A model generated the notes under the pieces. That model was not told the origin of the DNA. It ran no database searches and worked only from the letters and a program-made list of their open reading frames with translations. DNA of 12,295 bases from a virus (taxonomy: Duplodnaviria > Heunggongvirae > Uroviricota > Caudoviricetes): IMG/VR virus record IMGVR_UViG_2529292729_000023; one strand, written 5' to 3'. Each line of letters opens with the position of its first letter. Within the stretch, counting starts at the first letter, position 1. Positions 1,133 to 12,295 of this stretch are shown here, piece by piece. The translations under genes were made by a program, and so were the position numbers.

Positions 1133-1200
1133 CGGTTGTCTCTGCTGGCGCAGCAGGTGCCAGTTGTTCAGGCTGGCGTGTGGATTGTAAACCAGAATGC

Positions 1201-1230
1201 CAGGAAAAAACAAAACCCGCGAAGCGGGTT
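1201..1230 (-). terminator. rho-independent terminator ending the leftward R-M transcription unit
   Basis: On the minus strand: stem AACCCGC / GCGGGTT (plus 1214-1230), 3-nt loop, then TTTTGTTTTTTCC. It sits about 75 nt downstream of the endonuclease stop (1303). The plus-strand version has no U-tract. Confidence 0.55.
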
Positions 1231-1302
1231 AGTAAAAATGTACTGAAGTCAATGACGTGCCATCACAGTTAAAATATGACAGACTCTATTTACGTAGAGA
1301 TG

Positions 1303-1504
1303 TCAGACTGCAAGATCCAAGGGAAGATCAGAAATATCCTTTAATCTTTTACCATTAACCATCACGGAAAGCATGTCAGCTGCATCGCTGAGCCCCAGTA
1401 TTTCAACTGCTGATATAAGTTCATAAAGCGCAAAATGATACACGCAATCTATATCACCAGTACCAAGAGCAATAGACGCCAGACGACTTGGAGTAGGCTC
1501 AGCA
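1303..1504 (-). pseudogene. restriction endonuclease gene, C-terminal fragment (67 codons) separated from its 5' part by IS10
   Basis: Minus-strand frame reads ...AEPTPSRLASIALGTGDID...LPLDLAV-stop immediately outside the IS10 outside end. It is in frame with the N-terminal fragment once IS10 and one copy of the 9-bp duplication are removed. Confidence 0.8.
1496..1504. repeat. 9-bp target-site duplication GGCTCAGCA (left copy)
   Basis: Identical 9-mer directly abuts both IS10 ends (1496-1504 and 2834-2842). It matches the IS10 target preference NGCTNAGCN. Confidence 0.9.
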
Positions 1505-1550
1505 CTGATGAATCCCCTAATGATTTTGGTAAAAATCATTAAGTTAAGGT

Positions 1551-1619
1551 GGATACACATCTTGTCATATGATCAAATGGTTTCGCGAAAAATCAATAAT
1601 CAGACAACAAGATGTGCGA
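1551..1619 (-). ncRNA. IS10 RNA-OUT antisense RNA (pOUT transcript), approximate coordinates
   Basis: Placed from established IS10 biology: about 69 nt, transcribed outward from element bp ~115, overlapping the transposase start (ATG at 1612). Coordinates are mapped from memory of the element, not seen as a distinct signal. Confidence 0.45.
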
Positions 1620-2820
1620 ACTCGATATTTTACACGACTCTCTTTACCAATTCTGCCCCGAATTACACTTAAAACGACTCAACAGCTTAACGTTGGCTTG
1701 CCACGCATTACTTGACTGTAAAACTCTCACTCTTACCGAACTTGGCCGTAACCTGCCAACCAAAGCGAGAACAAAACATAACATCAAACGAATCGACCGA
1801 TTGTTAGGTAATCGTCACCTCCACAAAGAGCGACTCGCTGTATACCGTTGGCATGCTAGCTTTATCTGTTCGGGCAATACGATGCCCATTGTACTTGTTG
1901 ACTGGTCTGATATTCGTGAGCAAAAACGACTTATGGTATTGCGAGCTTCAGTCGCACTACACGGTCGTTCTGTTACTCTTTATGAGAAAGCGTTCCCGCT
2001 TTCAGAGCAATGTTCAAAGAAAGCTCATGACCAATTTCTAGCCGACCTTGCGAGCATTCTACCGAGTAACACCACACCGCTCATTGTCAGTGATGCTGGC
2101 TTTAAAGTGCCATGGTATAAATCCGTTGAGAAGCTGGGTTGGTACTGGTTAAGTCGAGTAAGAGGAAAAGTACAATATGCAGACCTAGGAGCGGAAAACT
2201 GGAAACCTATCAGCAACTTACATGATATGTCATCTAGTCACTCAAAGACTTTAGGCTATAAGAGGCTGACTAAAAGCAATCCAATCTCATGCCAAATTCT
2301 ATTGTATAAATCTCGCTCTAAAGGCCGAAAAAATCAGCGCTCGACACGGACTCATTGTCACCACCCGTCACCTAAAATCTACTCAGCGTCGGCAAAGGAG
2401 CCATGGGTTCTAGCAACTAACTTACCTGTTGAAATTCGAACACCCAAACAACTTGTTAATATCTATTCGAAGCGAATGCAGATTGAAGAAACCTTCCGAG
2501 ACTTGAAAAGTCCTGCCTACGGACTAGGCCTACGCCATAGCCGAACGAGCAGCTCAGAGCGTTTTGATATCATGCTGCTAATCGCCCTGATGCTTCAACT
2601 AACATGTTGGCTTGCGGGCGTTCATGCTCAGAAACAAGGTTGGGACAAGCACTTCCAGGCTAACACAGTCAGAAATCGAAACGTACTCTCAACAGTTCGC
2701 TTAGGCATGGAAGTTTTGCGGCATTCTGGCTACACAATAACAAGGGAAGACTTACTCGTGGCTGCAACCCTACTAGCTCAAAATTTATTCACACATGGTT
2801 ACGCTTTGGGGAAATTATGA
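1612..2820 (+). CDS. tnpA: IS10 transposase (402 aa)
   Basis: Track ORF 1612..2820; product MCELDILHDSLYQFCPELHLKRLNSLTLACHALLDCKTLTLTELGRNLP... matches the IS10-Right transposase as I recall it, full length. Confidence 0.95.
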   Translation: MCELDILHDSLYQFCPELHLKRLNSLTLACHALLDCKTLTLTELGRNLPTKARTKHNIKRIDRLLGNRHLHKERLAVYRWHASFICSGNTMPIVLVDWSDIREQKRLMVLRASVALHGRSVTLYEKAFPLSEQCSKKAHDQFLADLASILPSNTTPLIVSDAGFKVPWYKSVEKLGWYWLSRVRGKVQYADLGAENWKPISNLHDMSSSHSKTLGYKRLTKSNPISCQILLYKSRSKGRKNQRSTRTHCHHPSPKIYSASAKEPWVLATNLPVEIRTPKQLVNIYSKRMQIEETFRDLKSPAYGLGLRHSRTSSSERFDIMLLIALMLQLTCWLAGVHAQKQGWDKHFQANTVRNRNVLSTVRLGMEVLRHSGYTITREDLLVAATLLAQNLFTHGYALGKL

Positions 2821-2833
2821 GGGGATCTCTCAG

Positions 2834-2842
2834 GGCTCAGCA
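2834..2842. repeat. 9-bp target-site duplication GGCTCAGCA (right copy)
   Basis: Second copy of the 9-mer, directly after the IS10 inside end. Confidence 0.9.
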
Positions 2843-3519
2843 GTAACAACCATTACATGAGGGAGATTTCCCTTACGGTTGCGAATAAGATTTAATGCCT
2901 CAGAACGAGCATTCTGGGCCCGGTCGCTTCTTATTGTCCATTTGCAGGAAATACTTGCGTGTAATATTGGTTTCCCACCATTCGAACTCCTGAGAGCTGA
3001 CATGCGGGTAACAGAATCATCCACCAGTAATTCAGGACTGTTGATAACTTGATCACATTCAGGTTCTCTTTCAACAATAATATCTGGTGAAATCGTATAA
3101 TCACTCCCCAGTGCAGCAGCTAGCTGAGGATTACTTTTTGCAGCACTATCCAATGCTATAAGATGGGCATATTGTTCATATTTAGCTATCTCTAATCTGT
3201 TTCTACCAGAAACCTGATGTACATTCCATTTTCCAGGGCGTAAGTGGCTGAGTTTAAAAAAGGTTTTTTCTATAAACTCTGCGCAGATACTCTCAAACTG
3301 ATTACCAGATGTTTGCCCTGCAACACGTTCACCAATCGTTTCAGCCTGCAAGAAGCGAGCAATTTCTCTTGCTATAGCTTTACTGTTTTTGTTACTGCTA
3401 TCTGCGTTACTAACAACTCCGGCAGTATTAATTGTGAGCGTATTCAGTAACAATTGGGCATGAAACTCCTTTCTGGCTTCAGCAAAACCAACTATGCTGT
3501 CAACCAAATCTCCATTCAT
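2834..3519 (-). pseudogene. Type II restriction endonuclease gene, N-terminal fragment (229 codons), truncated by IS10; PD...SxK...E active-site pattern
   Basis: Track ORF 2830..3654 trimmed to ATG 3519 (AAGGAAA 7 nt upstream, 13 nt after the methyltransferase stop). Frame runs ...HVMVVTAEP then hits a stop one codon inside IS10. Contains SPD (D146), SCK (S191/K193) and E207. Reconstructed intact gene would be 292 codons. Confidence 0.8.
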
Positions 3520-3532
3520 TTCTGGATTTCCT

Positions 3533-4657
3533 TCAGGCTGCTTGACTATTCTTACTGATGTTATTCTTATACCGTCCCTGCAAAACTCCATACACATATT
3601 GTGCGATTTTTGCCGCAAATAGCGGTGGAACAGCATTCCCGATCTGCTTTGCAATCTCAGTTTTTGAACCGGTAAAAATGAAATTATCAGGAAAAGACAT
3701 TAATCTCGCTGCCTCACGATGAGTTATTGGCCGATCCTCTTCCGGATGTAAATATCGCCCTTTCTCCGGTTTGAAAAACTCAGTACGAATCGTTACTGAA
3801 GGTCTGTCCCACCACAGACGTCCAAACAAATCGGTCCCTCCAGATTTCTTTTTTAGCCAGCACGCCGGGGTTATATCAGGTCTTTTTTTCTGTAAATCGA
3901 AACGGTTACCTCCTGGTGGAACCGCTTTATATCGCTCCAGAGAAACAGGTGTGGGATTACGCCCAAAATGTAAGTTCAGCGGAGGAAGTTCATTACGAAT
4001 ATCAGTTCCAACAGGAGCAGGTAAGTCACCAATTGCATCACGCGTACAGACCCATTCAGGCAAAGCGACATCCTTATCAGGGGAACGATGCGTTGGTGCT
4101 GGCGGGAACGCCGGAATACTATGCACATCGAAGAGTTCTCGTTTGATACCGATTGCTATCGTTCGTTTTCTTGTCTGAGGTACTCCATAGTCAGCAGTAT
4201 TCAACACCATTGGATTAAGCAGAATAAAGCCCATGGATTTCGCTCTAAACGTAATGTCCGCAAACTCATCGCTTATCAGCAATCCGGGGACATTTTCCAT
4301 GACGAACATACAAGCCCTTGAACGCTCAATGACATCCATATAAGGCTCCCACAATGCTCTTCGGTGATCACCATAACGATTCTTATTCAATAAACTGAAT
4401 CCCTGACACGGGGGGCCACCTATGACCACATCAGCCTCAGGAACAGTATTGCTGGATGCCCACTCCTCAATATTTGCCTGAACTCCATGCAAACCAAAAT
4501 TGGCATTGTAGGTATTTATAGCTGCAGCATTATTATCAATAGCAAGGATACTTTCAAAGTAGTCAGACATCTCTCCATGAAGAAAACCATAAGATAATCC
4601 ACCTGCCCCACAAAAGAGGTCTATCACTCTGAATTTATTTAATTCTTTCATCCGCAT
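3533..4657 (-). CDS. DNA (cytosine-5)-methyltransferase, intact (374 aa)
   Basis: Conserved C5-MTase motifs all present: FCGAGG (I), GGPPCQGFS (IV, catalytic Cys), ENV (VI), QTRKR (VIII), GNAVPP (X). GAGG sits 7 nt upstream of ATG 4657. Confidence 0.9.
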   Translation of the reverse strand: MRMKELNKFRVIDLFCGAGGLSYGFLHGEMSDYFESILAIDNNAAAINTYNANFGLHGVQANIEEWASSNTVPEADVVIGGPPCQGFSLLNKNRYGDHRRALWEPYMDVIERSRACMFVMENVPGLLISDEFADITFRAKSMGFILLNPMVLNTADYGVPQTRKRTIAIGIKRELFDVHSIPAFPPAPTHRSPDKDVALPEWVCTRDAIGDLPAPVGTDIRNELPPLNLHFGRNPTPVSLERYKAVPPGGNRFDLQKKRPDITPACWLKKKSGGTDLFGRLWWDRPSVTIRTEFFKPEKGRYLHPEEDRPITHREAARLMSFPDNFIFTGSKTEIAKQIGNAVPPLFAAKIAQYVYGVLQGRYKNNISKNSQAA

Positions 4658-4815
4658 CCATATGCCTCAGATTAATGTTGAGCGTCTTGCAGGACGCGTA
4701 ATGTTAACTGGGGCTTTTCTCTATCTGCCTTTTGGTGTTCATGCCTGAGACAGATAGCCTCAAGCACCCGCAGCAATTCTACTTAACTCTCCTTTTCCCG
4801 CAAACCGTTTTTACC

Positions 4816-4837
4816 CGATATGGGAATTCCCATATCG
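4816..4837. repeat. perfect 22-bp palindrome CGATATGGGAATTCCCATATCG
   Basis: Read directly: left half CGATATGGGAA, right half is its exact reverse complement. Lies between the 34-aa peptide gene and the methyltransferase gene; no U-tract on either strand. Confidence 0.7.
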
Positions 4838-4845
4838 TAATGAAT

Positions 4846-4950
4846 TCAGTTCCCTAGTCGATCCATCAAAAACACAACCAGGCAGTAAACGCCCACAACA
4901 GCAACAACAGCCAGCGCACCTTCCATTGCCAGTGATATATCATCCGACAT
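4846..4950 (-). CDS. small hydrophobic single-pass membrane peptide (34 aa)
   Basis: ATG 4950 preceded by AAGGAGGG; product MSDDISLAMEGALAVVAVVGVYCLVVFLMDRLGN. Below the ORF-track size cutoff. Confidence 0.4.
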   Translation of the reverse strand: MSDDISLAMEGALAVVAVVGVYCLVVFLMDRLGN

Positions 4951-4991
4951 ATTCCCTCCTTTGGTGTTAATCCCGGCGAACGTTTTTACCC

Positions 4992-5069
4992 TCACCGACA
5001 AATAACATATACTAAAAAAGCGATAGCCATAGCAACGCCTGTAATTGCAAATGCTTCAGGCCAGTTCAT
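4992..5069 (-). CDS. small hydrophobic membrane peptide (25 aa), likely translationally coupled to the DUF551 gene
   Basis: ATG 5069 overlaps the DUF551 stop as ATGA; AGGAGGT lies 6 nt upstream; product MNWPEAFAITGVAMAIAFLVYVICR. Shares a GV...VY.. core with the 34-aa peptide. Confidence 0.4.
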   Translation of the reverse strand: MNWPEAFAITGVAMAIAFLVYVICR

Positions 5070-5701
5070 TGGCGCACCTCCTGCGGCGGTTCCGGTAGTG
5101 GCATCCAGTGAGTTGCCTGCTCAATGCCATTACCCGGCTTAATCGTTGCTTGTCCTCGCCGAAAGGTACTTCCGGTATTGCGTGCGGAGCATATTAGTGG
5201 CTCAACCAGATCACTATCGAAATTCACCGAAATAAGTACGTTCTGATTCTTTTTCGGCATTCGCTCACTACAGCTTATCCAACCATCCGGAATTACCGGA
5301 GAGTTGCCATTTACATCGAAGTTTGGTTCTGCGTCCTGAACTAGGAGGATGTAACCATTCTTGGCTGTATCAAGTTCTAACGCCTCGGTTACGGTACCGA
5401 AATAGCGATTACCTAAATCCGCATCACAAGTGCTTACATCAATGGAAACCTCCATGCCTTCGATTAATTCTGGCAAGTTGTAAGTTTGGCTTACAGGCTC
5501 TGCTTCCAGTGATGCCAGTGCAATTCGTGCCAGCTCACGCACAACTTCAGGGGGCGCGTAACGGTCATTCAGGTCATCCCACAGGCGTAGCATGTTATCG
5601 CTACCAGGGTGAACATCCTCGTTAGTTCCGGCAAGCGCACTAATAACCTCATCGGCTGCTTCAATAATTTTCTGTGCCTGTTCTCTGGTAATAGTGGTCA
5701 T
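5066..5701 (-). CDS. DUF551-domain prophage protein (211 aa)
   Basis: Track ORF; C-terminal DGWISCSERMP...ATHWMPLPEPP is the pattern I associate with DUF551. AAGGA 7 nt upstream of ATG 5701, which overlaps the upstream stop as ATGA. Confidence 0.75.
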   Translation of the reverse strand: MTTITREQAQKIIEAADEVISALAGTNEDVHPGSDNMLRLWDDLNDRYAPPEVVRELARIALASLEAEPVSQTYNLPELIEGMEVSIDVSTCDADLGNRYFGTVTEALELDTAKNGYILLVQDAEPNFDVNGNSPVIPDGWISCSERMPKKNQNVLISVNFDSDLVEPLICSARNTGSTFRRGQATIKPGNGIEQATHWMPLPEPPQEVRQ

Positions 5702-5907
5702 TTGTTAATCCTTAAAACTTTATGCCCTGGCGCAAAAGCACGTGTTTTGTCTTTGCTTATTCGCCAGCCATCCTTACGTGCCTCTTTTGCACAGCCAGCC
5801 CATGACGTACCGATATATTCACCGAAGTCTGGTACTGGATATACACCTTCCGTACACTGGCGGCAGTCACAATAGAGATGCATGGTGTAACTTGCGGCAA
5901 TAGCCAT
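5698..5907 (-). CDS. small Cys-rich hypothetical protein (69 aa)
   Basis: Track ORF 5698..5979 trimmed to ATG 5907 (AAGGAGAG 6 nt upstream). Product MAIAASYTMHLYCDCRQCTEGVYP... with a CxC-x2-C cluster. Confidence 0.55.
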   Translation of the reverse strand: MAIAASYTMHLYCDCRQCTEGVYPVPDFGEYIGTSWAGCAKEARKDGWRISKDKTRAFAPGHKVLRINK

Positions 5908-5908
5908 A

Positions 5909-6271
5909 TCACTCTCCTTTAGTACGCAAGTGGTTTTTCCAGCGGTTTTGCGCCGCGCTGGGCTTTTTGCAAAAACCACAATCCATCATCCCGTAATGTT
6001 TCATTAACCCCATCCGTCGGTTGCTGAGTCTCACCCACTGCCAGACGCCAGGACCGTTTCTGCGAACTAATAGGATTTTTGCTTTACGGTTTTTCATCGC
6101 TTTGCTCTCCTGCGTTTCTTTGCTGCACGTCTCGCCGCCGCAATACCGGTACGACGTTTCGATACCGGAATGATGCTGCCAGCCATCAGGACATGCGGCA
6201 TAACTGTTAAGGCTGCCCCATGAAACCAGACCAGATAAGGCGATATCAGCATTACTCACTCCAGCAACCAT
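5909..6271 (-). CDS. hypothetical protein (120 aa) with CGGETC and CGFC Cys pairs; start uncertain, may be two smaller genes
   Basis: Frame open over 363 nt, but ATG 6271 has no Shine-Dalgarno. Internal ATG 6097 has AGGAGA upstream and would give a 62-aa product. Another frame gives a 52-aa ORF (6252 to 6094) with GGAG upstream and an ATGA junction at 6097. Confidence 0.4.
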   Translation of the reverse strand: MVAGVSNADIALSGLVSWGSLNSYAACPDGWQHHSGIETSYRYCGGETCSKETQESKAMKNRKAKILLVRRNGPGVWQWVRLSNRRMGLMKHYGMMDCGFCKKPSAAQNRWKNHLRTKGE

Positions 6272-6326
6272 TCTTTGGTTAATTCAGTCATTTTTCATTA
6301 CCGCCCTTTCGGGCGGCCTCCTGACA

Positions 6327-6539
6327 TTAATCGTTGTGATAACTCATAGCTTCATTTGCAGCATCAACTGGATCAACCTCCCTCCAGCAATAATTTGGGT
6401 CGGCTCCTTCAGGCGTCCACGGTTCTAATTCATTTTTTGCCGCATTCTCATCGCCAGTAATTTTAAAAATCTGCTCAGAGAATTTTCTTGCCCACTCGTT
6501 ATATTTTTCCGCATTAATGGCTTTCTGTGTATTTAACAT
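6327..6539 (-). CDS. hypothetical protein (70 aa)
   Basis: Track ORF; GGAGG 7 nt upstream of ATG 6539; acidic product MLNTQKAINAEKYNEWARKF... Confidence 0.6.
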   Translation of the reverse strand: MLNTQKAINAEKYNEWARKFSEQIFKITGDENAAKNELEPWTPEGADPNYCWREVDPVDAANEAMSYHND

Positions 6540-6589
6540 AAATATACCTCCAGTTAAGGATTAGATTTTATTTACAGCGCTAAATTTAT

Positions 6590-6946
6590 TTATTCAGTTC
6601 TGGATTTTGTCACCCTGCGTATCCGCGCTTTCGCGTTACGCTCAATCTGAATTAACTTTTCTATATTTTTCCGCCTTTCCTGTTCCTCCAGGCGCAATAG
6701 TTTTACATCATCTGCCAGCCTGGTTTCTCTTTTCGCAACAGAGAGCATCCAGTCAAATGGCTCCACAACTGCACCGCAGATTTTACAGCGGACCTGACGC
6801 TCTTTTTCGTCAACCCGGACAGAGGCGTGATGACAATATGGCCTTTCCGATGGCTCATAAAGAAAATTAACCTGATTACGTGGGTCATCCTCTTTTACCG
6901 GAAATAAAACAATATTACTTAACTCATCTTCTGGTTTTATTTCCAT
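6590..6946 (-). CDS. hypothetical protein (118 aa), putative zinc-ribbon plus charged coiled-coil tail
   Basis: Track ORF 6590..7003 trimmed to ATG 6946 (AAGGAGAGG upstream). Contains YCHH...RCKICGAV, then a Lys/Arg/Glu-rich C-terminus. Confidence 0.6.
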   Translation of the reverse strand: MEIKPEDELSNIVLFPVKEDDPRNQVNFLYEPSERPYCHHASVRVDEKERQVRCKICGAVVEPFDWMLSVAKRETRLADDVKLLRLEEQERRKNIEKLIQIERNAKARIRRVTKSRTE

Positions 6947-7003
6947 GCACCTCTCCTTTGATGCGAATGCCAGCGGCAATTGAAGCCTGATAGCTAATTT
7001 CAC

Positions 7004-7399
7004 TCACAGCACCACCTCCTGAAAATTCCCCTGACAGAACGCCAGTACACGCTGCATAACTTCGCTATTTCGGCACTCACTGCAAATTATGTTCTGATGC
7101 CTGTCATAGCGGCGTATTTCTCCGTCTGGTAACTTTCGAATCAATGTCTGGTCGGTTGTTTTCTCCGCTGCCTTACGCCATACGCGATACACCTGTTCTG
7201 ATGCAAAAACACCGTATTTACCGGGCATGTATAAATCGCCACAAGCCAGTACATCCACAAGGCAACGTCTGACTGAATGCCAGCCTGCTCCCGTCGCTCT
7301 CTCCAGTTGTGATATCGTCATGCGTTCATTTTTGCGTACCAACCCGATAATTCGGGCCTTCAGTTCTTCACGCTGTTCGTGTGTAAAAGGTTTCGCCAT
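7004..7399 (-). CDS. hypothetical protein (131 aa), possible winged-helix N-terminus
   Basis: Track ORF 7004..7414 begins at TTG; ATG 7399 has GGAGG 5 nt upstream. Product MAKPFTHEQREELKARIIGLVRKNERMTISQLERATG... Confidence 0.6.
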   Translation of the reverse strand: MAKPFTHEQREELKARIIGLVRKNERMTISQLERATGAGWHSVRRCLVDVLACGDLYMPGKYGVFASEQVYRVWRKAAEKTTDQTLIRKLPDGEIRRYDRHQNIICSECRNSEVMQRVLAFCQGNFQEVVL

Positions 7400-7414
7400 A
7401 AGCGCCTCCGGCAA

Positions 7415-8185
7415 TCACTTTTCCGACACAATACGACCGGATGAATCGACAATCTGCCGAACAATATCCCGGTGCTTGTTCAGTTCCCGCAGCGCGGCGC
7501 AGACACGCTCCCACTTCTGAACCTGACCTTTTGCCCGGCGCAGCTCGCGGTTAGCCACATGCAGCGATGGTAAAATCAGCCCATCCGGATGCTTTCTGGT
7601 GAACAACGGCTGTGACTGCACTGTGACCGCCACACTTTCAGTTTTTATTTCTTCCTGTGTCGTCGTTTCCTGGACTGGTAACGCAACACCTGTTGGCTGA
7701 GGAAAGGCTTTACCATCGGTTTCCGCTACGGATGCAGCTTCCGGCTCTGCCGGTAAATCAGCGCCCGGTATGCAGTAACGAAATTTACCGTTCTGATTTA
7801 CGCGTGCCAGGCGCCCCGTTGCTGTTACGACCGCCAACGTGGAAGCAACCTTGCGAATGCTAACACCGAACTTATCCGCCAGTTCCTCACACGTTTTAGC
7901 CCCATCCTGACAGATAAACTCAATCATCATGTCCGCGGTAACTTTTTGTTCGACCTCCCCGGTCAGCACATCCGGTACTTCAGACTGTGCTGGCTGCTCT
8001 TCGGTTACCCCGGATTCACCTTCACCAGCCAGAAACCAGGTGTGACCCGTTTTATCAACAACGCCATTTTTTTTGAGTTCCCACAGTTCGTTGAGAACTT
8101 CTTCACGGCTGATATCAAGCCGCGCCGCCAGTTCAACAGAATTGGCTTTACCCATCGCTTTCAGTGCATGCAATACGGTTTCCAT
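7415..8185 (-). CDS. hypothetical prophage early-region protein (256 aa) with two winged-helix-like segments
   Basis: Track ORF; GGAGG 8 nt upstream of ATG 8185. Two similar segments: [37 protein letters not shown] and [42 protein letters not shown]. Confidence 0.65.
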
Positions 8186-8214
8186 TAAAACTTCCTCCGG
8201 ATAAAAATTACTTC

Positions 8215-8955
8215 TCAGTTCCTGTGCTGGCTGACGTTCGGACGCCAGCTCTCCCAGTTAAACGTCACCCAGCGACCACCGTTCATGGACATGCGGTCCA
8301 TCACCCGCTCGCCGAGAAGTGTATTCATCGCTGCATGGTTAAGATTTGTCAGCATCCCCACACTGAGTAACGATGCCGTTCTGCGGTCAACAATCTGATT
8401 CAGCGTGACCTGCTCATTACGCGTATCCCGTTGCATGCCAATTTCATCCAGTACCAGCAGGTCAACGCCACACAATCCCTGCAAAAATTTTTCGCCCGAG
8501 TTTTTGTTGTCGTAGCTGCCATGTAACGCCAGCATCACATCCGCCACTGTTATCACAATCACACTGCGACCTTTCGCCAGAAGGTGGTTGCCAATAGCCG
8601 CCGCCAGGTGGTTTTTTCCTGTGCCAGGCCGGCCACTGAACACAAAATTCGTACAGCCGCCTTCCAGCTCTGCCGCAATGGATTTCGCCTGACTCAGGGC
8701 ATGGCGCTGACCATCGTTCTGCACCCGGTAGTTACCGAACGTACACTTCCGGTGAAGCGGCTGGATACCGGAGCGGTTAATGATTTTTTCAACCCGCGTC
8801 TGATGATTCAGACGATTAACCTCCTCGCTTCGCTTACGCCCTTCAGCAAGCTGCCATTCCCGCCACTCCGTCACCGTACGGTACGGAGGGATTGCATCCT
8901 GCGGCACAAATCTGCTGACTCTTGCCAGAACACCACCTGACGTAATGTTTTTCAT
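8215..8955 (-). CDS. DnaC/IstB-like AAA+ helicase-loader (246 aa)
   Basis: Walker A-like [15 protein letters not shown] and Walker B LLVLDEIG; positioned directly downstream of the O-like initiator, as in lambdoid replication modules. Confidence 0.8.
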
Positions 8956-8961
8956 GATGCG

Positions 8962-9939
8962 CTACCCCCTGAAACCCGGCGGAATTTCGGTATCCGGTTC
9001 AGAAATATGATTCACGCAACGCTGCGCGGGACCACGCCACAGTCGAATAACCAGTTCATCCCATTTCTCACGGAGTTTTTCCGGGCTCTTGATGTTTTTT
9101 ATCCAGAACGGATCCCGTTGTGCCCGGCTGAACATTTCGCAAATTTGTCTGTGACTTCTTCCATCCAGCATCCGCATTGTGCGCACGTCATTGGCCCACG
9201 CCGTCCAGTTGGGCTCTTTCGGTCGCGTGATCTCACCATCGTCACTGGCAGCCTGTTCGTACAGGTTTACAACCCGCCCCCAGATCCACTGCGCACATGT
9301 CAAATCCTCCCGGGTTCCCCACTGGCGTTTTTTCACGCTGAACACAACAGCATCAGGATGGCGGGTTAAAAACGCCTGTTCAGCCGTCAACTCGTCCGGT
9401 TGCGAAGCGTCCGGACAAGAGAGTTTTTTATTCTCTGTTGTATTCTCTGTTGTATTCTCTGTTGTATTCTCTGTAGGATCATCGGGCCATTTTGACCTGA
9501 TGACATTGGGCCGTTTTGAACCAATGGAACGTTTCATTTTGACCTCTTCCATCGTGTCATTTTGACCTGATGGAGTGGCGCATTTTGACCCGATGGATTC
9601 GTTCACTTTGCCATCATCTAAAAGCGCGCTATCGTAGTTAATTGTGTAAAAATTAGTCATATCACGCTTCGATTTATTGAGCTTTTCGCTACGCAAAAGC
9701 CCCAGCGCTTTCAGACTTGCAAACGCACGCTTTAACGTTGACTCTGACCAGAACGGAAACTGTTCCAGCCATTGTTCCGTTGTGTTGTAAATCCAGCGAA
9801 CGCCATCACATTCCATGCCGGAACTGGTATCCCTCAACCAGTAATGCAGTTGCTGCAACACAATGGCTTCGTTTAAACCAATCTTCATCGCCAGCTGTGT
9901 GTTTATAACCAGCGGGCGTTCAGCAAAAAGAAGGCTCAT
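8962..9939 (-). CDS. phage replication initiator, O-like (about 325 aa)
   Basis: Track ORF 8962..9981 starts at GTG 9981; first ATG is 9939 (MSLLFAERPLVINTQLAMKIGLNEAIVLQQLHYW...). Two families of direct repeats lie inside the coding sequence, as for the lambda origin inside gene O. Confidence 0.75.
   Translation of the reverse strand: MSLLFAERPLVINTQLAMKIGLNEAIVLQQLHYWLRDTSSGMECDGVRWIYNTTEQWLEQFPFWSESTLKRAFASLKALGLLRSEKLNKSKRDMTNFYTINYDSALLDDGKVNESIGSKCATPSGQNDTMEEVKMKRSIGSKRPNVIRSKWPDDPTENTTENTTENTTENKKLSCPDASQPDELTAEQAFLTRHPDAVVFSVKKRQWGTREDLTCAQWIWGRVVNLYEQAASDDGEITRPKEPNWTAWANDVRTMRMLDGRSHRQICEMFSRAQRDPFWIKNIKSPEKLREKWDELVIRLWRGPAQRCVNHISEPDTEIPPGFRG
9431..9474. repeat. tandem 12-bp repeat TTCTCTGTTGTA, about 3.7 copies, in frame (encodes TENT repeats)
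   Basis: Read directly: units at 9431-9442, 9443-9454, 9455-9466, partial 9467-9474. Translates on the minus strand as TENTTENTTENTTEN. Confidence 0.85.
9488..9612. repeat. six iteron-like direct repeats, core CATTTTGACC, 23-24 bp period; candidate replication origin
   Basis: Cores at 9488, 9512 (CGTTTTGAACC), 9535, 9558, 9581, 9604 (CACTTTGCC). Followed by an AT-rich stretch at 9619-9660. Confidence 0.65.
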
Positions 9940-10441
9940 AATTCCATCCGGCTTTTTGTTGGTACTGGTGACGATAGGCACGCTTGAAAGCGATTGCTTT
10001 TTCTATAAGCTCGTCTGTCTCACGTTCCACAACAGCTGGATCTGCAAAAAGCAGCCCGGACTCCACCACATCGCCATATTCTTTGTTTAACCCGGCAATC
10101 ATGTACGTAATGCTTTTTCCGTCAGTAATTTCGCGGTACAACCTGAAATCACTAATCCGGATAGCCTCCATAATTGCCGGAATCAGCGCCGTGAATTTTT
10201 CACGCTTATCCCTGGTGTCGATAGCCTTCCAGCGTTCGAATATCTTCACCCGGTTAACGCCAAGCGCACGCTGATCAACCCCGCCATCATCAAGCGTGAC
10301 ACGCTGAACATCGATGTTCGGGCGTTCCTGTAGAGCCCAGAAGGCTTCAGTAATTAATATCGTCGCCTGCTCCTGCGTCATTCCTGGTCTGCATACCCAG
10401 GCATCCAGAGCCTCGCAAACCTGTTCAGGTGTGATTTTCAT
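9920..10441 (-). CDS. YdaT-like protein in the CII-equivalent position (173 aa)
   Basis: Track ORF; second gene of the leftward early operon. Product MKITPEQVCEALDAWV...KFTALIPAIMEAI... resembles YdaT-type prophage proteins as I recall them. Confidence 0.6.
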   Translation of the reverse strand: MKITPEQVCEALDAWVCRPGMTQEQATILITEAFWALQERPNIDVQRVTLDDGGVDQRALGVNRVKIFERWKAIDTRDKREKFTALIPAIMEAIRISDFRLYREITDGKSITYMIAGLNKEYGDVVESGLLFADPAVVERETDELIEKAIAFKRAYRHQYQQKAGWNYEPSFC

Positions 10442-10703
10442 TGTTCACCGCCAGTAATTCATTCGCTGTACTCTTACGTCCACAAGGCAGGCCATCGGTT
10501 GGGTTAGGGTAAATATCTGGTCGGAGCTCGTGGGGGGTGACAGTCCACGCCATAATCTCACATAGTTGTAAAACCCTTGATGCAGGGACCTGTTGCCCAT
10601 TAACCCATCGACATACAACCTGCTGTGGCAACCCAATCAAGCGAGCAACACCCGCTTGGGATAACCCTATTTGGCGAATTTTATTTTTTAAACATTTATG
10701 CAT
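10425..10703 (-). CDS. Cro-like HTH regulator (YdaS-like), 92 aa
   Basis: Track ORF 10425..10739 starts at GTG; ATG 10703 has GGAG 8 nt upstream. HTH segment LSQAGVARLIGLPQQVVCRW. Divergent from the repressor gene. Confidence 0.65.
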   Translation of the reverse strand: MHKCLKNKIRQIGLSQAGVARLIGLPQQVVCRWVNGQQVPASRVLQLCEIMAWTVTPHELRPDIYPNPTDGLPCGRKSTANELLAVNNENHT

Positions 10704-10730
10704 ATCGCTAACTCCAATCAATCGACACCA

Positions 10731-10804
10731 CTTATACACTTTAAAAGTTACACTATCAACACTTTCAAGCTGATTGTGCTGGCTACACTTTTTTTGTGTA
10801 AAAT
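10731..10804. promoter_or_regulatory. divergent promoter-operator region of the immunity switch
   Basis: Three ACACTTT-containing sites (10736, 10759, 10785) fitting CACTT-N4-AAGTG half-site symmetry. Leftward promoter on the minus strand: -35 TTGATA (10754-10759), 17-bp spacer, -10 TATAAG (10731-10736). Rightward -10 TAAAAT (10799-10804) ends 7 nt before the repressor ATG. Confidence 0.45.
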
Positions 10805-10810
10805 GAATGC

Positions 10811-11218
10811 ATGAAGCGAATGACCACTCTTGAAATAACCACGTACCGGATAAAACTGGTGCTGGAAAAAACAGGGCTTAAGCAAGCAGAACTAGCCCGC
10901 AGAATAGGTGTTGCCCAACAATCGGTCCAAAAGTGGGTTCATGGCATCACAAGCCCATCAATGGCTAATCTTGATAAACTTTCTGAAGTAACAGGATTCC
11001 CTCCATATTGGTTTATGTTGCCACCAAGTGAGGACGAACAGATTGTGGTACCTGACACAATGAAAATAGGTCCGAAGCAAAGAGAGCTACTTCAGACATT
11101 TGGTGCATTCCCAGAGGAAGAACAGGGACAAATGCTTCAGGAGATGAAAGACAAAAAAGAGTTAATGGAGCGCACAATTGAAAGATGGCTCGCTGCCCGG
11201 AAAGGGCATCGAGCATAA
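10811..11218 (+). CDS. XRE-family HTH repressor (CI-like / PaaR-like), 135 aa, no S24 peptidase domain
   Basis: HTH GLKQAELARRIGVAQQSVQKWVHG; divergent from the Cro-like gene; no Ala-Gly / Ser-Lys autocleavage module in the C-terminal half. Confidence 0.8.
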   Translation: MKRMTTLEITTYRIKLVLEKTGLKQAELARRIGVAQQSVQKWVHGITSPSMANLDKLSEVTGFPPYWFMLPPSEDEQIVVPDTMKIGPKQRELLQTFGAFPEEEQGQMLQEMKDKKELMERTIERWLAARKGHRA

Positions 11219-11247
11219 TGACCACCATACACAGACGGAGGTGTGCC

Positions 11248-11436
11248 ATGAATACGGCCCTTTCACCAATGGTTTCTGAGTTCGAAACCATTGAACAAGA
11301 AAACAGTTACAACGAATGGCTGCGTGCGAAAGTAGCAGCGAGCCTTGCAAATCCGCGCCCAGCAATTCCCCATGACGAGGTTGAGCGCAGAATGGCAGAA
11401 CGCTTTGCTAAAATGCGCAAGGAACGGAGTAAGTAG
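11248..11436 (+). CDS. antitoxin partner of ParE (PaaA-like), 62 aa
   Basis: Track ORF 11185..11436 trimmed to ATG 11248 (GGAGG 6 nt upstream). Stop lies 3 nt before the toxin ATG. Product MNTALSPMVSEFETIEQENSYNEWLRAKVAASLANPRPAIPHDEVERRMAERFAKMRKERSK. Confidence 0.65.
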   Translation: MNTALSPMVSEFETIEQENSYNEWLRAKVAASLANPRPAIPHDEVERRMAERFAKMRKERSK

Positions 11437-11439
11437 TAA

Positions 11440-11727
11440 ATGTTACCCGTGTTATGGCTTGAAAGCGCAGATACCGACCTAGATGATATAACTAGTTATA
11501 TTGCTCGTTTCGACATAGATGCGGCAGAACGCTTATGGCAGCGATTAAGGGGGTGTGTGCTGCCGTTATCCGAACACCCGTATTTATACCCACCAAGCGA
11601 CAGAGTACCTGGCTTGCGTGAGATTGTAGCTCACCCTAACTATATAATTCTTTACCGTGTAGCCACTTTAAGCATTGAGATCGTGAGTGTAGTACACGCC
11701 AGACGCCAATTCCCCAAGCAGAACTAA
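11440..11727 (+). CDS. parE: ParE/RelE-family type II toxin (95 aa)
   Basis: Product MLPVLWLESADTDLDDITSYIARFDIDAAERLWQRLRG...PGLREIVAHPNYIILYRVATLSIEIVSVVHARRQF follows the ParE-family pattern. Confidence 0.8.
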   Translation: MLPVLWLESADTDLDDITSYIARFDIDAAERLWQRLRGCVLPLSEHPYLYPPSDRVPGLREIVAHPNYIILYRVATLSIEIVSVVHARRQFPKQN

Positions 11728-11739
11728 CCCTTTCACAGG

Positions 11740-11767
11740 GCCGTCTCATCTCGAGGCGGTTTTTGTT
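11740..11767 (+). terminator. rho-independent terminator after the repressor-antitoxin-toxin operon
   Basis: Stem CCGTCTC (11741-11747) pairs with GAGGCGG (11753-11759) including one G-U pair; 5-nt loop; then TTTTTGTT. Confidence 0.6.
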
Positions 11768-11778
11768 GCTCACAACCT

Positions 11779-11814
11779 AACTTTATAAGTGTTGACATAA
11801 TAACTTTAAAAGTG
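11779..11814. promoter_or_regulatory. second operator-like cluster with a -35-like TTGACA
   Basis: AACTTTATAAGTG (11779-11791) and AACTTTAAAAGTG (11802-11814), 23 bp apart, flank TTGACA (11792-11797). Same CACTT-N4-AAGTG-type motif as at 10736. No convincing -10 hexamer seen. Confidence 0.35.
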
Positions 11815-11998
11815 CATCCTTGTTTCACCAACCCACCCCATTCAACAGAACGCAGGGCAATACTTCGAGTTACCCGGCAGTGGTCAGGGGTTAAGTAGCC
11901 AGCCCGAGGCGTATGAACATGACGGCGGGAACACTTTGTATAACAGCGCAGCAGGTTTTTAGTTCCGCGACCCGGCGTTAAGGGTAAATGAGGTCAAC

Positions 11999-12151
11999 AT
12001 GGATACTATCGATCTTGGCAACAACGAATCTCTGGTATGTGGCGTGTTTCCCAATCAGGACGGCACATTCACCGCCATGACGTATACCAAAAGCAAATCG
12101 TTTAAAACCGAAGCTGGCGCGCATCGCTGGTTAGCAAGAAACTCCGACTAA
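11999..12151 (+). CDS. small hypothetical protein (50 aa)
   Basis: ATG 11999 with GAGG 5 nt upstream; product MDTIDLGNNESLVCGVFPNQDGTFTAMTYTKSKSFKTEAGAHRWLARNSD. Below the ORF-track size cutoff. Confidence 0.5.
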   Translation: MDTIDLGNNESLVCGVFPNQDGTFTAMTYTKSKSFKTEAGAHRWLARNSD

Positions 12152-12162
12152 TGAGGTTGACG

Positions 12163-12295
12163 ATGGAATTTAAAGATTTACCTCCTTCAATCCAGGAGAT
12201 TGCAGCACACACACTTCGTCATCGTCTGAACGAACTTGAATTGGAATCGGTAACGAAAAAAGACACTGATAATATGGCTCGTAATGTGCGCGATA
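12163..12295 (+). CDS. hypothetical protein, 5' part only (runs off the right edge)
   Basis: ATG 12163 with GAGG 6 nt upstream; MEFKDLPPSIQEIAAHTLRHRLNELELESVTKKDTDNMARNVRD... continues beyond the window. Confidence 0.45.
   Translation, partial: MEFKDLPPSIQEIAAHTLRHRLNELELESVTKKDTDNMARNVRD

Follow-up and report, generated by a model that had tools for sequence, protein, structure and literature searches.

Does an insertion sequence lying inside a restriction gene mark a genuine transposition event and, if so, what has become of the restriction-modification (R-M) system to which that gene belonged? The question is raised by a 12,295 bp stretch of DNA, hereafter referred to as the window, which is the whole of contig AMXQ01000223.1 from Shiga toxin-producing Escherichia coli O111:H8 strain CFSAN001632. 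This strain is a human clinical isolate (stx1), the genome of which was sequenced by 454 at 20x and assembled in draft form with Newbler. On the minus strand of the window, within a lambdoid prophage, is a type II R-M pair in which the C5-cytosine DNA methyltransferase gene is intact and the gene for an NgoMIV-family endonuclease is interrupted by a complete copy of IS10. We regard it as very likely that IS10 has knocked out the endonuclease of this prophage-borne pair, which would leave the intact methylase a solitary one.

The IS10 element and its target site

IS10 occupies positions 1505-2833 and is full length at 1329 bp, with its outside end at 1505 and its inside end at 2833; judged by its transposase it lies on the plus strand, opposite to the R-M genes. 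The left terminus begins CTGATGAATCCCC... (in its longer form CTGATGAATCCCCTAATGATTTTGG), the right terminus ends ...GGGGATCTCTCAG, and the two, read as CTGATGAATCCCCT... and CTGAGAGATCCCCT..., constitute imperfect terminal inverted repeats. At the DNA level the element is 100% identical to IS10 copies found on many plasmids. Its single long open reading frame (ORF; 1612-2820, plus strand), with an ATG at IS10 nt 108, specifies a transposase of 402 amino acids which matches Pfam DDE_Tnp_1 and the NCBIfam IS4-family equivalog NF033591 (E 4e-121). The residues D97, D161 and E292, which we take to be the catalytic triad of the IS10 transposase, are in place. The antisense RNA of the element, RNA-OUT, which is transcribed from pOUT, was recognized on the minus strand at 1550-1619 (Rfam RF00240, 98.8 bits, model positions 1-70 of 70). 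It corresponds to IS10 nt 115-46, and its transcription heads towards the outside end, i.e. into the 3' fragment of the endonuclease gene.

The element is bordered by two copies of the 9 bp sequence GGCTCAGCA, at 1496-1504 on the left and 2834-2842 on the right, which represent the target-site duplication. Published descriptions give IS10 a length of 1329 bp, a 9 bp duplication and the classical target consensus NGCTNAGCN (PMC4574204, citing Halling and Kleckner 1982); GGCTCAGCA agrees with this consensus, its core GCTCAGC being a form of the hotspot GCTNAGC. Each of the IS10 characteristics that we looked for was thus present, namely the length and inverted repeats, the 9 bp duplication at a hotspot, the 402-residue DDE transposase and RNA-OUT. 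The initial annotation, made from the sequence without database searches, had placed an IS10 with an intact transposase at these positions and had noted that the 9 bp repeat fits the target preference of the element; its coordinates were correct throughout, and comparison with the consensus bears out the second point. It had further held that this is a genuine transposition and not an assembly join, a view which is upheld by the duplication, by the exact restoration of the interrupted gene and by the second assembly described below.

The un-inserted sequence of 10,957 bp contains only two perfect GCTNAGC hotspots, at 1387-1393 and 1497-1503, and both fall in the final 200 nt of the endonuclease gene. 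The position of the insertion is therefore sufficiently explained by target preference alone, and the endonuclease gene is an intrinsically likely target for IS10. Selection need only have tolerated the loss of the endonuclease, as is expected when the methylase is retained.

The endonuclease gene, restored and split

Removal of positions 1505-2842 in silico results in a minus-strand ORF of 879 nt (292 codons), extending from an ATG at 3519 to a stop codon at 1303-1305, the product of which reads ...HVMVVTAEP|TPSRLASIALG... across the join. The restored 292 amino acid protein matches Pfam NgoMIV_restric (PF09015) over positions 1-275 of 275 (E 6e-127). Against the structure of NgoMIV (PDB 1FIU; E 1e-118) its residues 12-292 align with residues 5-286, ungapped at the junction, and the two proteins are 66% identical over 281 aligned residues. 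The catalytic PD...(S/T)xK...E and the CCGG-recognizing R-x-D-R motifs of the NgoMIV family are defined in passages of PMC3413111, which also describe NgoMIV as active in the form of a tetramer. According to PMC4652773, R227 belongs to the additional residues by which the outer G:C pair is specified, the outer-base determinants being D34, Q63 and R227. All of the NgoMIV residues D34, Q63, E70, D140, S185-C-K187, R191-S-D-R194, E201 and R227, whose roles are described in these two papers, are conserved in the restored protein, in which D40 is the equivalent of D34, Q69 of Q63, D146 of D140, S191-C-K193 of S185-C-K187, R197-S-D-R200 of R191-R194, E207 of E201 and R233 of R227. On the basis of these conserved contact residues we would predict cleavage at G/CCGGC.

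In the gene as it now stands the 5' fragment (2830-3519, minus strand) comprises native codons 1-229 followed by a TGA which is provided by the inside end of IS10 (2830-2832). Codon 229 reads CCC in place of the native CCT, and specifies proline either way. The 229 amino acid product was called with PF09015, and keeps D40, Q69, E76, D146, S191-C-K193, R197-S-D-R200 and E207. The 3' fragment (1303-1504, minus strand) consists of codons 230-292 and the stop codon, preceded by duplicated codons 227-229; it contains R233. The 63 residues which have been cut off are better conserved than the remainder of the protein (73% vs 63% identity to NgoMIV). One continuous polypeptide with all of the outer-base determinants was specified by the ancestral gene and is not specified by the present one. 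Since the 229-residue fragment is without the last 63 residues, including R233, the split endonuclease is most likely inactive.

An in-frame ORF (1303-1560, minus strand) begins inside IS10 and runs into the 3' fragment, and a 78 amino acid PF09015 product has been called from it. Functional expression of this ORF is unlikely, because it has no evident ribosome-binding site and because the normal end of RNA-OUT lies inside the element.

The methyltransferase

The methyltransferase gene (3533-4657, minus strand) encodes 374 amino acids from the ATG at 4657, or 372 if the RefSeq start, two codons later, is used. The protein matches PF00145 over positions 1-320 of 324 (E 4e-54) and TIGR00675 (dcm). 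The motifs FCGAGG, PPCQGFS, ENVPGL, QTRKR and GNAVPP are all present, and motifs I, IV, VI, VIII and X are invariant in an alignment with its relatives. The DNA is 100% identical to that of the loci which specify WP_001427299.1. As is characteristic of type II R-M operons, the two genes are adjacent and co-oriented, and they occur as a pair in other genomes. Since the methyltransferase gene is located upstream of the endonuclease gene, with a spacer of 13 nt (3520-3532) between them, the insertion is expected to have no polar effect upon it. The methylase is presumably still expressed and active, and its partner enzyme points to GCCGGC as the putative site of methylation. Avoidance of GCCGGC could not be discerned within the window, where one site is found and 2.8 are expected, a difference which is not significant.

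The variable region of the methyltransferase is conserved among relatives that are accompanied by NgoMIV-type nucleases and among those accompanied by HNH nucleases, a pattern which suggests that unrelated nucleases may have been swapped behind one lineage of methylase. In Yersinia kristensenii (L007, 4001-6092) and Edwardsiella tarda (L008/L009, 4001-6068) a relative of the methyltransferase is followed by an overlapping gene for an HNH-domain protein of 326-330 amino acids.

The empty site and the distribution of the interrupted allele

The rejoined pair, 2,113 bp in length, was sought in 5,426 complete E. coli genomes, 60 of which carry it, always in one full-length piece. Of these uninterrupted loci at least 43 are 100% identical to the rejoined sequence; 59 are at least 99% identical, and one shows 97.5% identity. 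Both genes are intact in all 60 carriers, where they are annotated as an NgoMIV family type II restriction endonuclease (WP_001012717.1; 292 amino acids) and a DNA cytosine methyltransferase (WP_001427299.1). IS10 was found in this locus in none of the 5,426 genomes. The locus of CFSAN001632 is consequently the single disrupted one among the 61 seen, and the lineage of this R-M pair is not generally decaying in E. coli. Its carriers include many O157:H7 strains, O111:H8 (strain 7-27 20A), O111:H11, O103 and O39, and the order of methyltransferase followed by 292-residue endonuclease is also found in Klebsiella and Cronobacter.

These data bear on other points raised by the initial annotation. 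Its conclusion that the methyltransferase has been left with no working endonuclease partner is supported as a prediction from sequence. It had proposed that deletion of 1505-2842 rebuilds a gene of 292 codons starting 13 nt after the methyltransferase stop, and it is this gene that the 60 genomes carry in one piece. It had also suggested a search for a full-length homolog of the joined protein next to a similar methyltransferase; besides PF09015 and 1FIU, such a homolog was obtained in WP_001012717.1, which is encoded beside WP_001427299.1. The IS10-free loci, inspected for a gene ending near position 2834, have a continuous gene instead, so that neither of the two outcomes which that annotation had named as refuting it was obtained. 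The insertion would appear to be recent, since there are zero substitutions over 2,113 bp relative to intact alleles.

A look-up of the exact 229 amino acid product in public assemblies returned three occurrences: the source contig, the Logan assembly of read set SRR578810, and one metagenome contig. SRR578810 possibly derives from the same isolate as CFSAN001632. Its contig (L003), the product of a de Bruijn assembly, corresponds to positions 1191-4710 of the window and is 100% identical to it over 3,520 bp, passing unbranched through both IS10 junctions (the junction k-mers of the IS10-bearing allele are GTAGGCTCAGCACTGATGAATCC and GATCTCTCAGGGCTCAGCAGTAAC). From this unbranched passage we infer that IS10 is single-copy, and that there is no second, intact cassette, in this read set. 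The contig ends approximately 40 nt outside each boundary of the cassette; in SRR578810, it would appear, IS10 and the cassette each occur once, and it is the prophage flanks that are repeated.

The metagenome contig (L004; ENA SHET22-1, 355-1041) was considered as a second truncated allele and rejected, for its final bases are those of the native sequence (...GCTGAGCCT), whereas the IS10 junction would read ...GCCC. That its end coincides precisely with codon 229 of the uninterrupted gene is due to chance, and calls for caution in exact-protein look-ups. An exact-match scan for the left junction among contigs representing one genome per species gave no match, and is uninformative at that sampling. 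Literature searches, in which NgoMIV was combined with prophages and GCCGGC with O157, yielded no description of this allele or of the prophage R-M pair, and a further paper, on a restriction endonuclease gene and an insertion sequence (PMC9413875), proved to be irrelevant.

Prophage context

The R-M cassette, consisting of the methylase, the endonuclease and, later, IS10, extends over 1231-4663 (minus strand), as delimited by BLAST breakpoints, alignments and the annotation of a sister prophage. The prophage is a mosaic one of the lambdoid kind, and the cassette lies in the region that separates its replication genes from the Q antiterminator. Over positions 4660-12295 the window shows 99.9% identity to prophages carried by strains 2012C-4227 and 07_3636. 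In the first of these (L005), the sister prophage that was examined in detail, the same slot is occupied by a 3' leader, hokD and a 130 amino acid ORF in place of the R-M pair.

Both edges of the slot can be recognized. On the left, downstream of the endonuclease stop, there is an intrinsic-terminator-like hairpin with a T run (1204-1230, minus strand; AACCCGCTTCGCGGGTT + TTGTTTTTTC) which is common to the hokD-carrying sister prophage, homology resuming at about 1230. On the right is a remnant of the hok mRNA 5' leader (4664-4769, minus strand), which corresponds to the first 88 or so positions of the Rfam 'sok' model RF01794. Here the homology with the sister prophage takes in the region of the hok promoter together with approximately 105 nt at the start of the leader, down to ...CTGAGGC at 4664, and stops 6 nt before the methylase ATG; the stretch of L005 to be compared with window positions 4664-4802 is 5936-6141. 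RF01794 scores 115 bits in front of hokD in the sister prophage, 70.8 bits in the window and 61 bits in the O157 and O111 strains which carry the R-M pair; in the window and in these carriers only its 5' half is aligned. Since the alignment is on the same strand as hokD, and the consensus ends with the AUG at the hokD start, the model behaves as the leader of hok mRNA. A complete hok leader followed by a hok ORF is not found at this locus, which has model positions 1 to about 88 only and no hok ORF after them. In O157:H7 strain 9000 and in O111:H8 strain 7-27 20A the R-M pair likewise has this remnant in front of it, which is not found before the pair of Klebsiella or Cronobacter.

Upstream of the methylase a simple promoter scan revealed no convincing site and no strong sigma-70 consensus, and did not list the candidate of hok type. 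The latter, read by eye from the alignment, lies at approximately 4775-4802 (minus strand) with a -35 sequence of TTGCGG, a 16 nt spacer and a -10 sequence of TAGAAT. The operon, methylase followed by endonuclease, is probably transcribed from this leftover hok promoter, with transcription ending at the shared terminator. R-M and hok/sok are both modules of the addiction type, and in this slot the first has taken the place of the second.

Elsewhere on the contig a second addiction-type module is present, a PaaA2-like antitoxin paired with a ParE-family toxin (11185-11727, plus strand), which is located beside the prophage immunity region. The latter includes a helix-turn-helix repressor (10811-11218) and YdaS/YdaT (9920-10739). 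Inside a gene resembling those of replication initiators (8962-9981, minus strand) there is a perfect 12 bp tandem repeat of 3.8 copies (9429-9474), which encodes TENTTENTTENTTEN, followed by a looser 23 bp repeat at 9552-9610. These two repeats may represent iterons of the origin which, as in lambda, lie within an O-like gene.

Probable origin of a solitary methylase

The course of events that would best account for the locus begins with a prophage type II R-M operon on the minus strand, in which the methyltransferase gene comes first and the NgoMIV-family endonuclease gene follows 13 nt later. IS10 would have entered by cut-and-paste transposition at the hotspot GGCTCAGCA, at endonuclease codons 227-229, and in doing so have duplicated 9 bp. 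Translation of the interrupted gene should then stop at the TGA 1-3 nt inside IS10, and give rise to a 229-residue fragment which holds the catalytic and CCGG-reading residues. Having lost its last 63 residues, and with them R233, the putative reader of the outer G:C pair, the endonuclease would be inactive. The methylase would be unaffected, and the lysogen would go on methylating GCCGGC without restriction. What is shown directly is the anatomy of the locus, its homologies, the existence of an empty site and how rare the interrupted allele is; loss of nuclease activity, continued expression of the methylase, its GCCGGC specificity and the recent date of the event are deduced from these.

Several points weigh against this explanation. 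When 5.8 billion proteins were searched with the methyltransferase in the hope of a named methylase with an established specificity (M.NgoMIV, for example), the homologs returned carried generic names only, so that its GCCGGC specificity is a prediction; and some of its relatives, at 72-75% identity, are partnered with an HNH nuclease instead. The 229 amino acid fragment retains every catalytic residue, and might still possess residual nicking or binding activity. An unrelated isoschizomer could be encoded elsewhere in the genome, our view being that of a single contig. That the lysogen expresses the cassette is likewise a prediction, and, as judged from one contig, the insertion may have taken place either in nature or in the course of passage in the laboratory.

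The possibility that IS10 is an artefact, a repeat misplaced in a 454/Newbler contig, is suggested by the source, a draft at 20x, and by the fact that insertion sequences are often sites of misassembly. A misjoin would not be expected to produce a perfect 9 bp duplication at a consensus hotspot together with the exact restoration of 292 codons, and the separate assembly of SRR578810 has the identical 3,520 bp structure across both junctions; we consider the chance of such an artefact to be negligible. A real insertion could, on the other hand, have arisen during storage or culture in the laboratory, in which case it would be silent on the natural population. The allele is known only from the CFSAN001632 assembly and from one read set that may be from the same isolate, zero substitutions relative to the intact alleles indicate a very recent event, and IS10 is known to transpose in E. 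coli kept in the laboratory (PMC4574204). There is no positive evidence for such an origin, the strain is a clinical isolate and not a Tn10-bearing laboratory strain, and IS10 is common in natural E. coli, a query containing it having been matched in 2,025 of the 5,426 complete genomes. We hold a laboratory origin to be unlikely, albeit deserving of consideration. Marginally more doubtful, in our opinion, is the proposal that the cassette had been silent in the prophage before IS10 arrived; the insertion would then be neutral, the methylase would not be made and the locus would be decaying DNA, not a solitary methylase. Many prophage accessory genes are repressed in lysogens, and the simple scan, as mentioned, detected no strong sigma-70 consensus upstream of the methylase. 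A promoter and leader of hok type are nevertheless situated directly upstream, and the 100% conservation of both genes across serotypes, intact as they are in 60 of 60 carriers, argues for selection and hence for expression.

It could also be supposed that restriction survives the insertion, the 229 amino acid fragment being active either alone or with a C-terminal piece made from the ORF at 1303-1560 (minus strand) by read-through from pOUT. The N-terminal fragment does hold all of the catalytic and CCGG-recognition residues, the two fragments overlap by three residues through the duplicated codons, and the ORF is in frame, initiates with ATG and passes from IS10 into the 3' fragment in the direction of RNA-OUT and pOUT. 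No Shine-Dalgarno-like sequence could, however, be read before either candidate start, and RNA-OUT normally ends at IS10 nt 46, within the element; the missing 63 residues are the better conserved ones and hold R233, and reassembly from fragments would be demanding for an enzyme which, according to the passages of PMC3413111 cited above, is tetrameric. Survival of restriction in this manner strikes us as very improbable. We would give equally little credence to the notion of IS10 as a switch on latent restriction, whereby the fragments would reassemble into a weak or conditional endonuclease, or rare precise excision between the 9 bp repeats would restore the gene in a cell that is already methylated. 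Loss of the endonuclease through insertion of IS10, with retention of the methylase, is thus the explanation which we prefer.

Comparison with known systems

The closest characterized relative is the NgoMIV system of Neisseria gonorrhoeae (PDB 1FIU/4ABT; type IIF, G/CCGGC), with which the pair shares 66% identity in the endonuclease, the catalytic and recognition residues, and a C5 methyltransferase partner. It differs in residing in a lambdoid prophage of E. coli and not in a Neisseria chromosome, in being known from its sequence alone, and in that IS10 separates the R227 equivalent from the catalytic part. With the uninterrupted E. coli alleles, such as those of O157:H7 strain 9000 and O111:H8 strain 7-27 20A, the resemblance is 100% over 2,113 bp and extends to the gene order, the 13 nt spacer, the hok remnant and the terminator. 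Those alleles are free of IS10 and have a single GGCTCAGCA, and their mosaic prophages have QueH as a neighbour, in contrast to the block of genes with DUF551 found here. The relationship to hok/sok (hokD of lambdoid prophages) is confined to the promoter-proximal 105 nt, approximately, of the leader directly upstream of the methylase; lacking the hok ORF and the 3' half of the leader, the locus carries a remnant and is not a member of that family.

As regards the insertion itself, there is mechanistically no difference from other cases of inactivation by IS10/Tn10 at NGCTNAGCN hotspots, which are the same in element size, 9 bp duplication, target and simple knock-out. What is particular is that the target is a restriction gene, the loss of which is tolerated because the methylase stays. 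In having an intact methyltransferase gene beside a broken restriction gene, the locus resembles the orphan methyltransferases of decayed R-M systems. It is unlike them in its apparently very recent date, there being zero substitutions, and in that the lesion is in principle fully reversible. Breakage of the endonuclease gene beside an intact methyltransferase gene is the accepted way in which an R-M system can shed restriction and spare its host. General background on the mobility and selfish behaviour of R-M systems is given in PMC3031569. All of the elements involved are of established kinds: IS10 and its hotspot, NgoMIV-type enzymes, C5 methylases, R-M cassettes of prophages, and the loss of restriction with modification kept. 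The present case is a new instance and involves no new mechanism; biologically it is ordinary, and follows a textbook route of decay.

Its value is that of a record at the level of single bases, with a matching empty site, of a prophage R-M pair becoming what is probably a solitary cytosine methylase in a pathogenic lineage of E. coli. For strain typing and the prediction of methylomes, this O111:H8 isolate would be expected to be modified at GCCGGC without restricting there, and its uptake of foreign DNA could be slightly wider than that of strains which carry the intact cassette.

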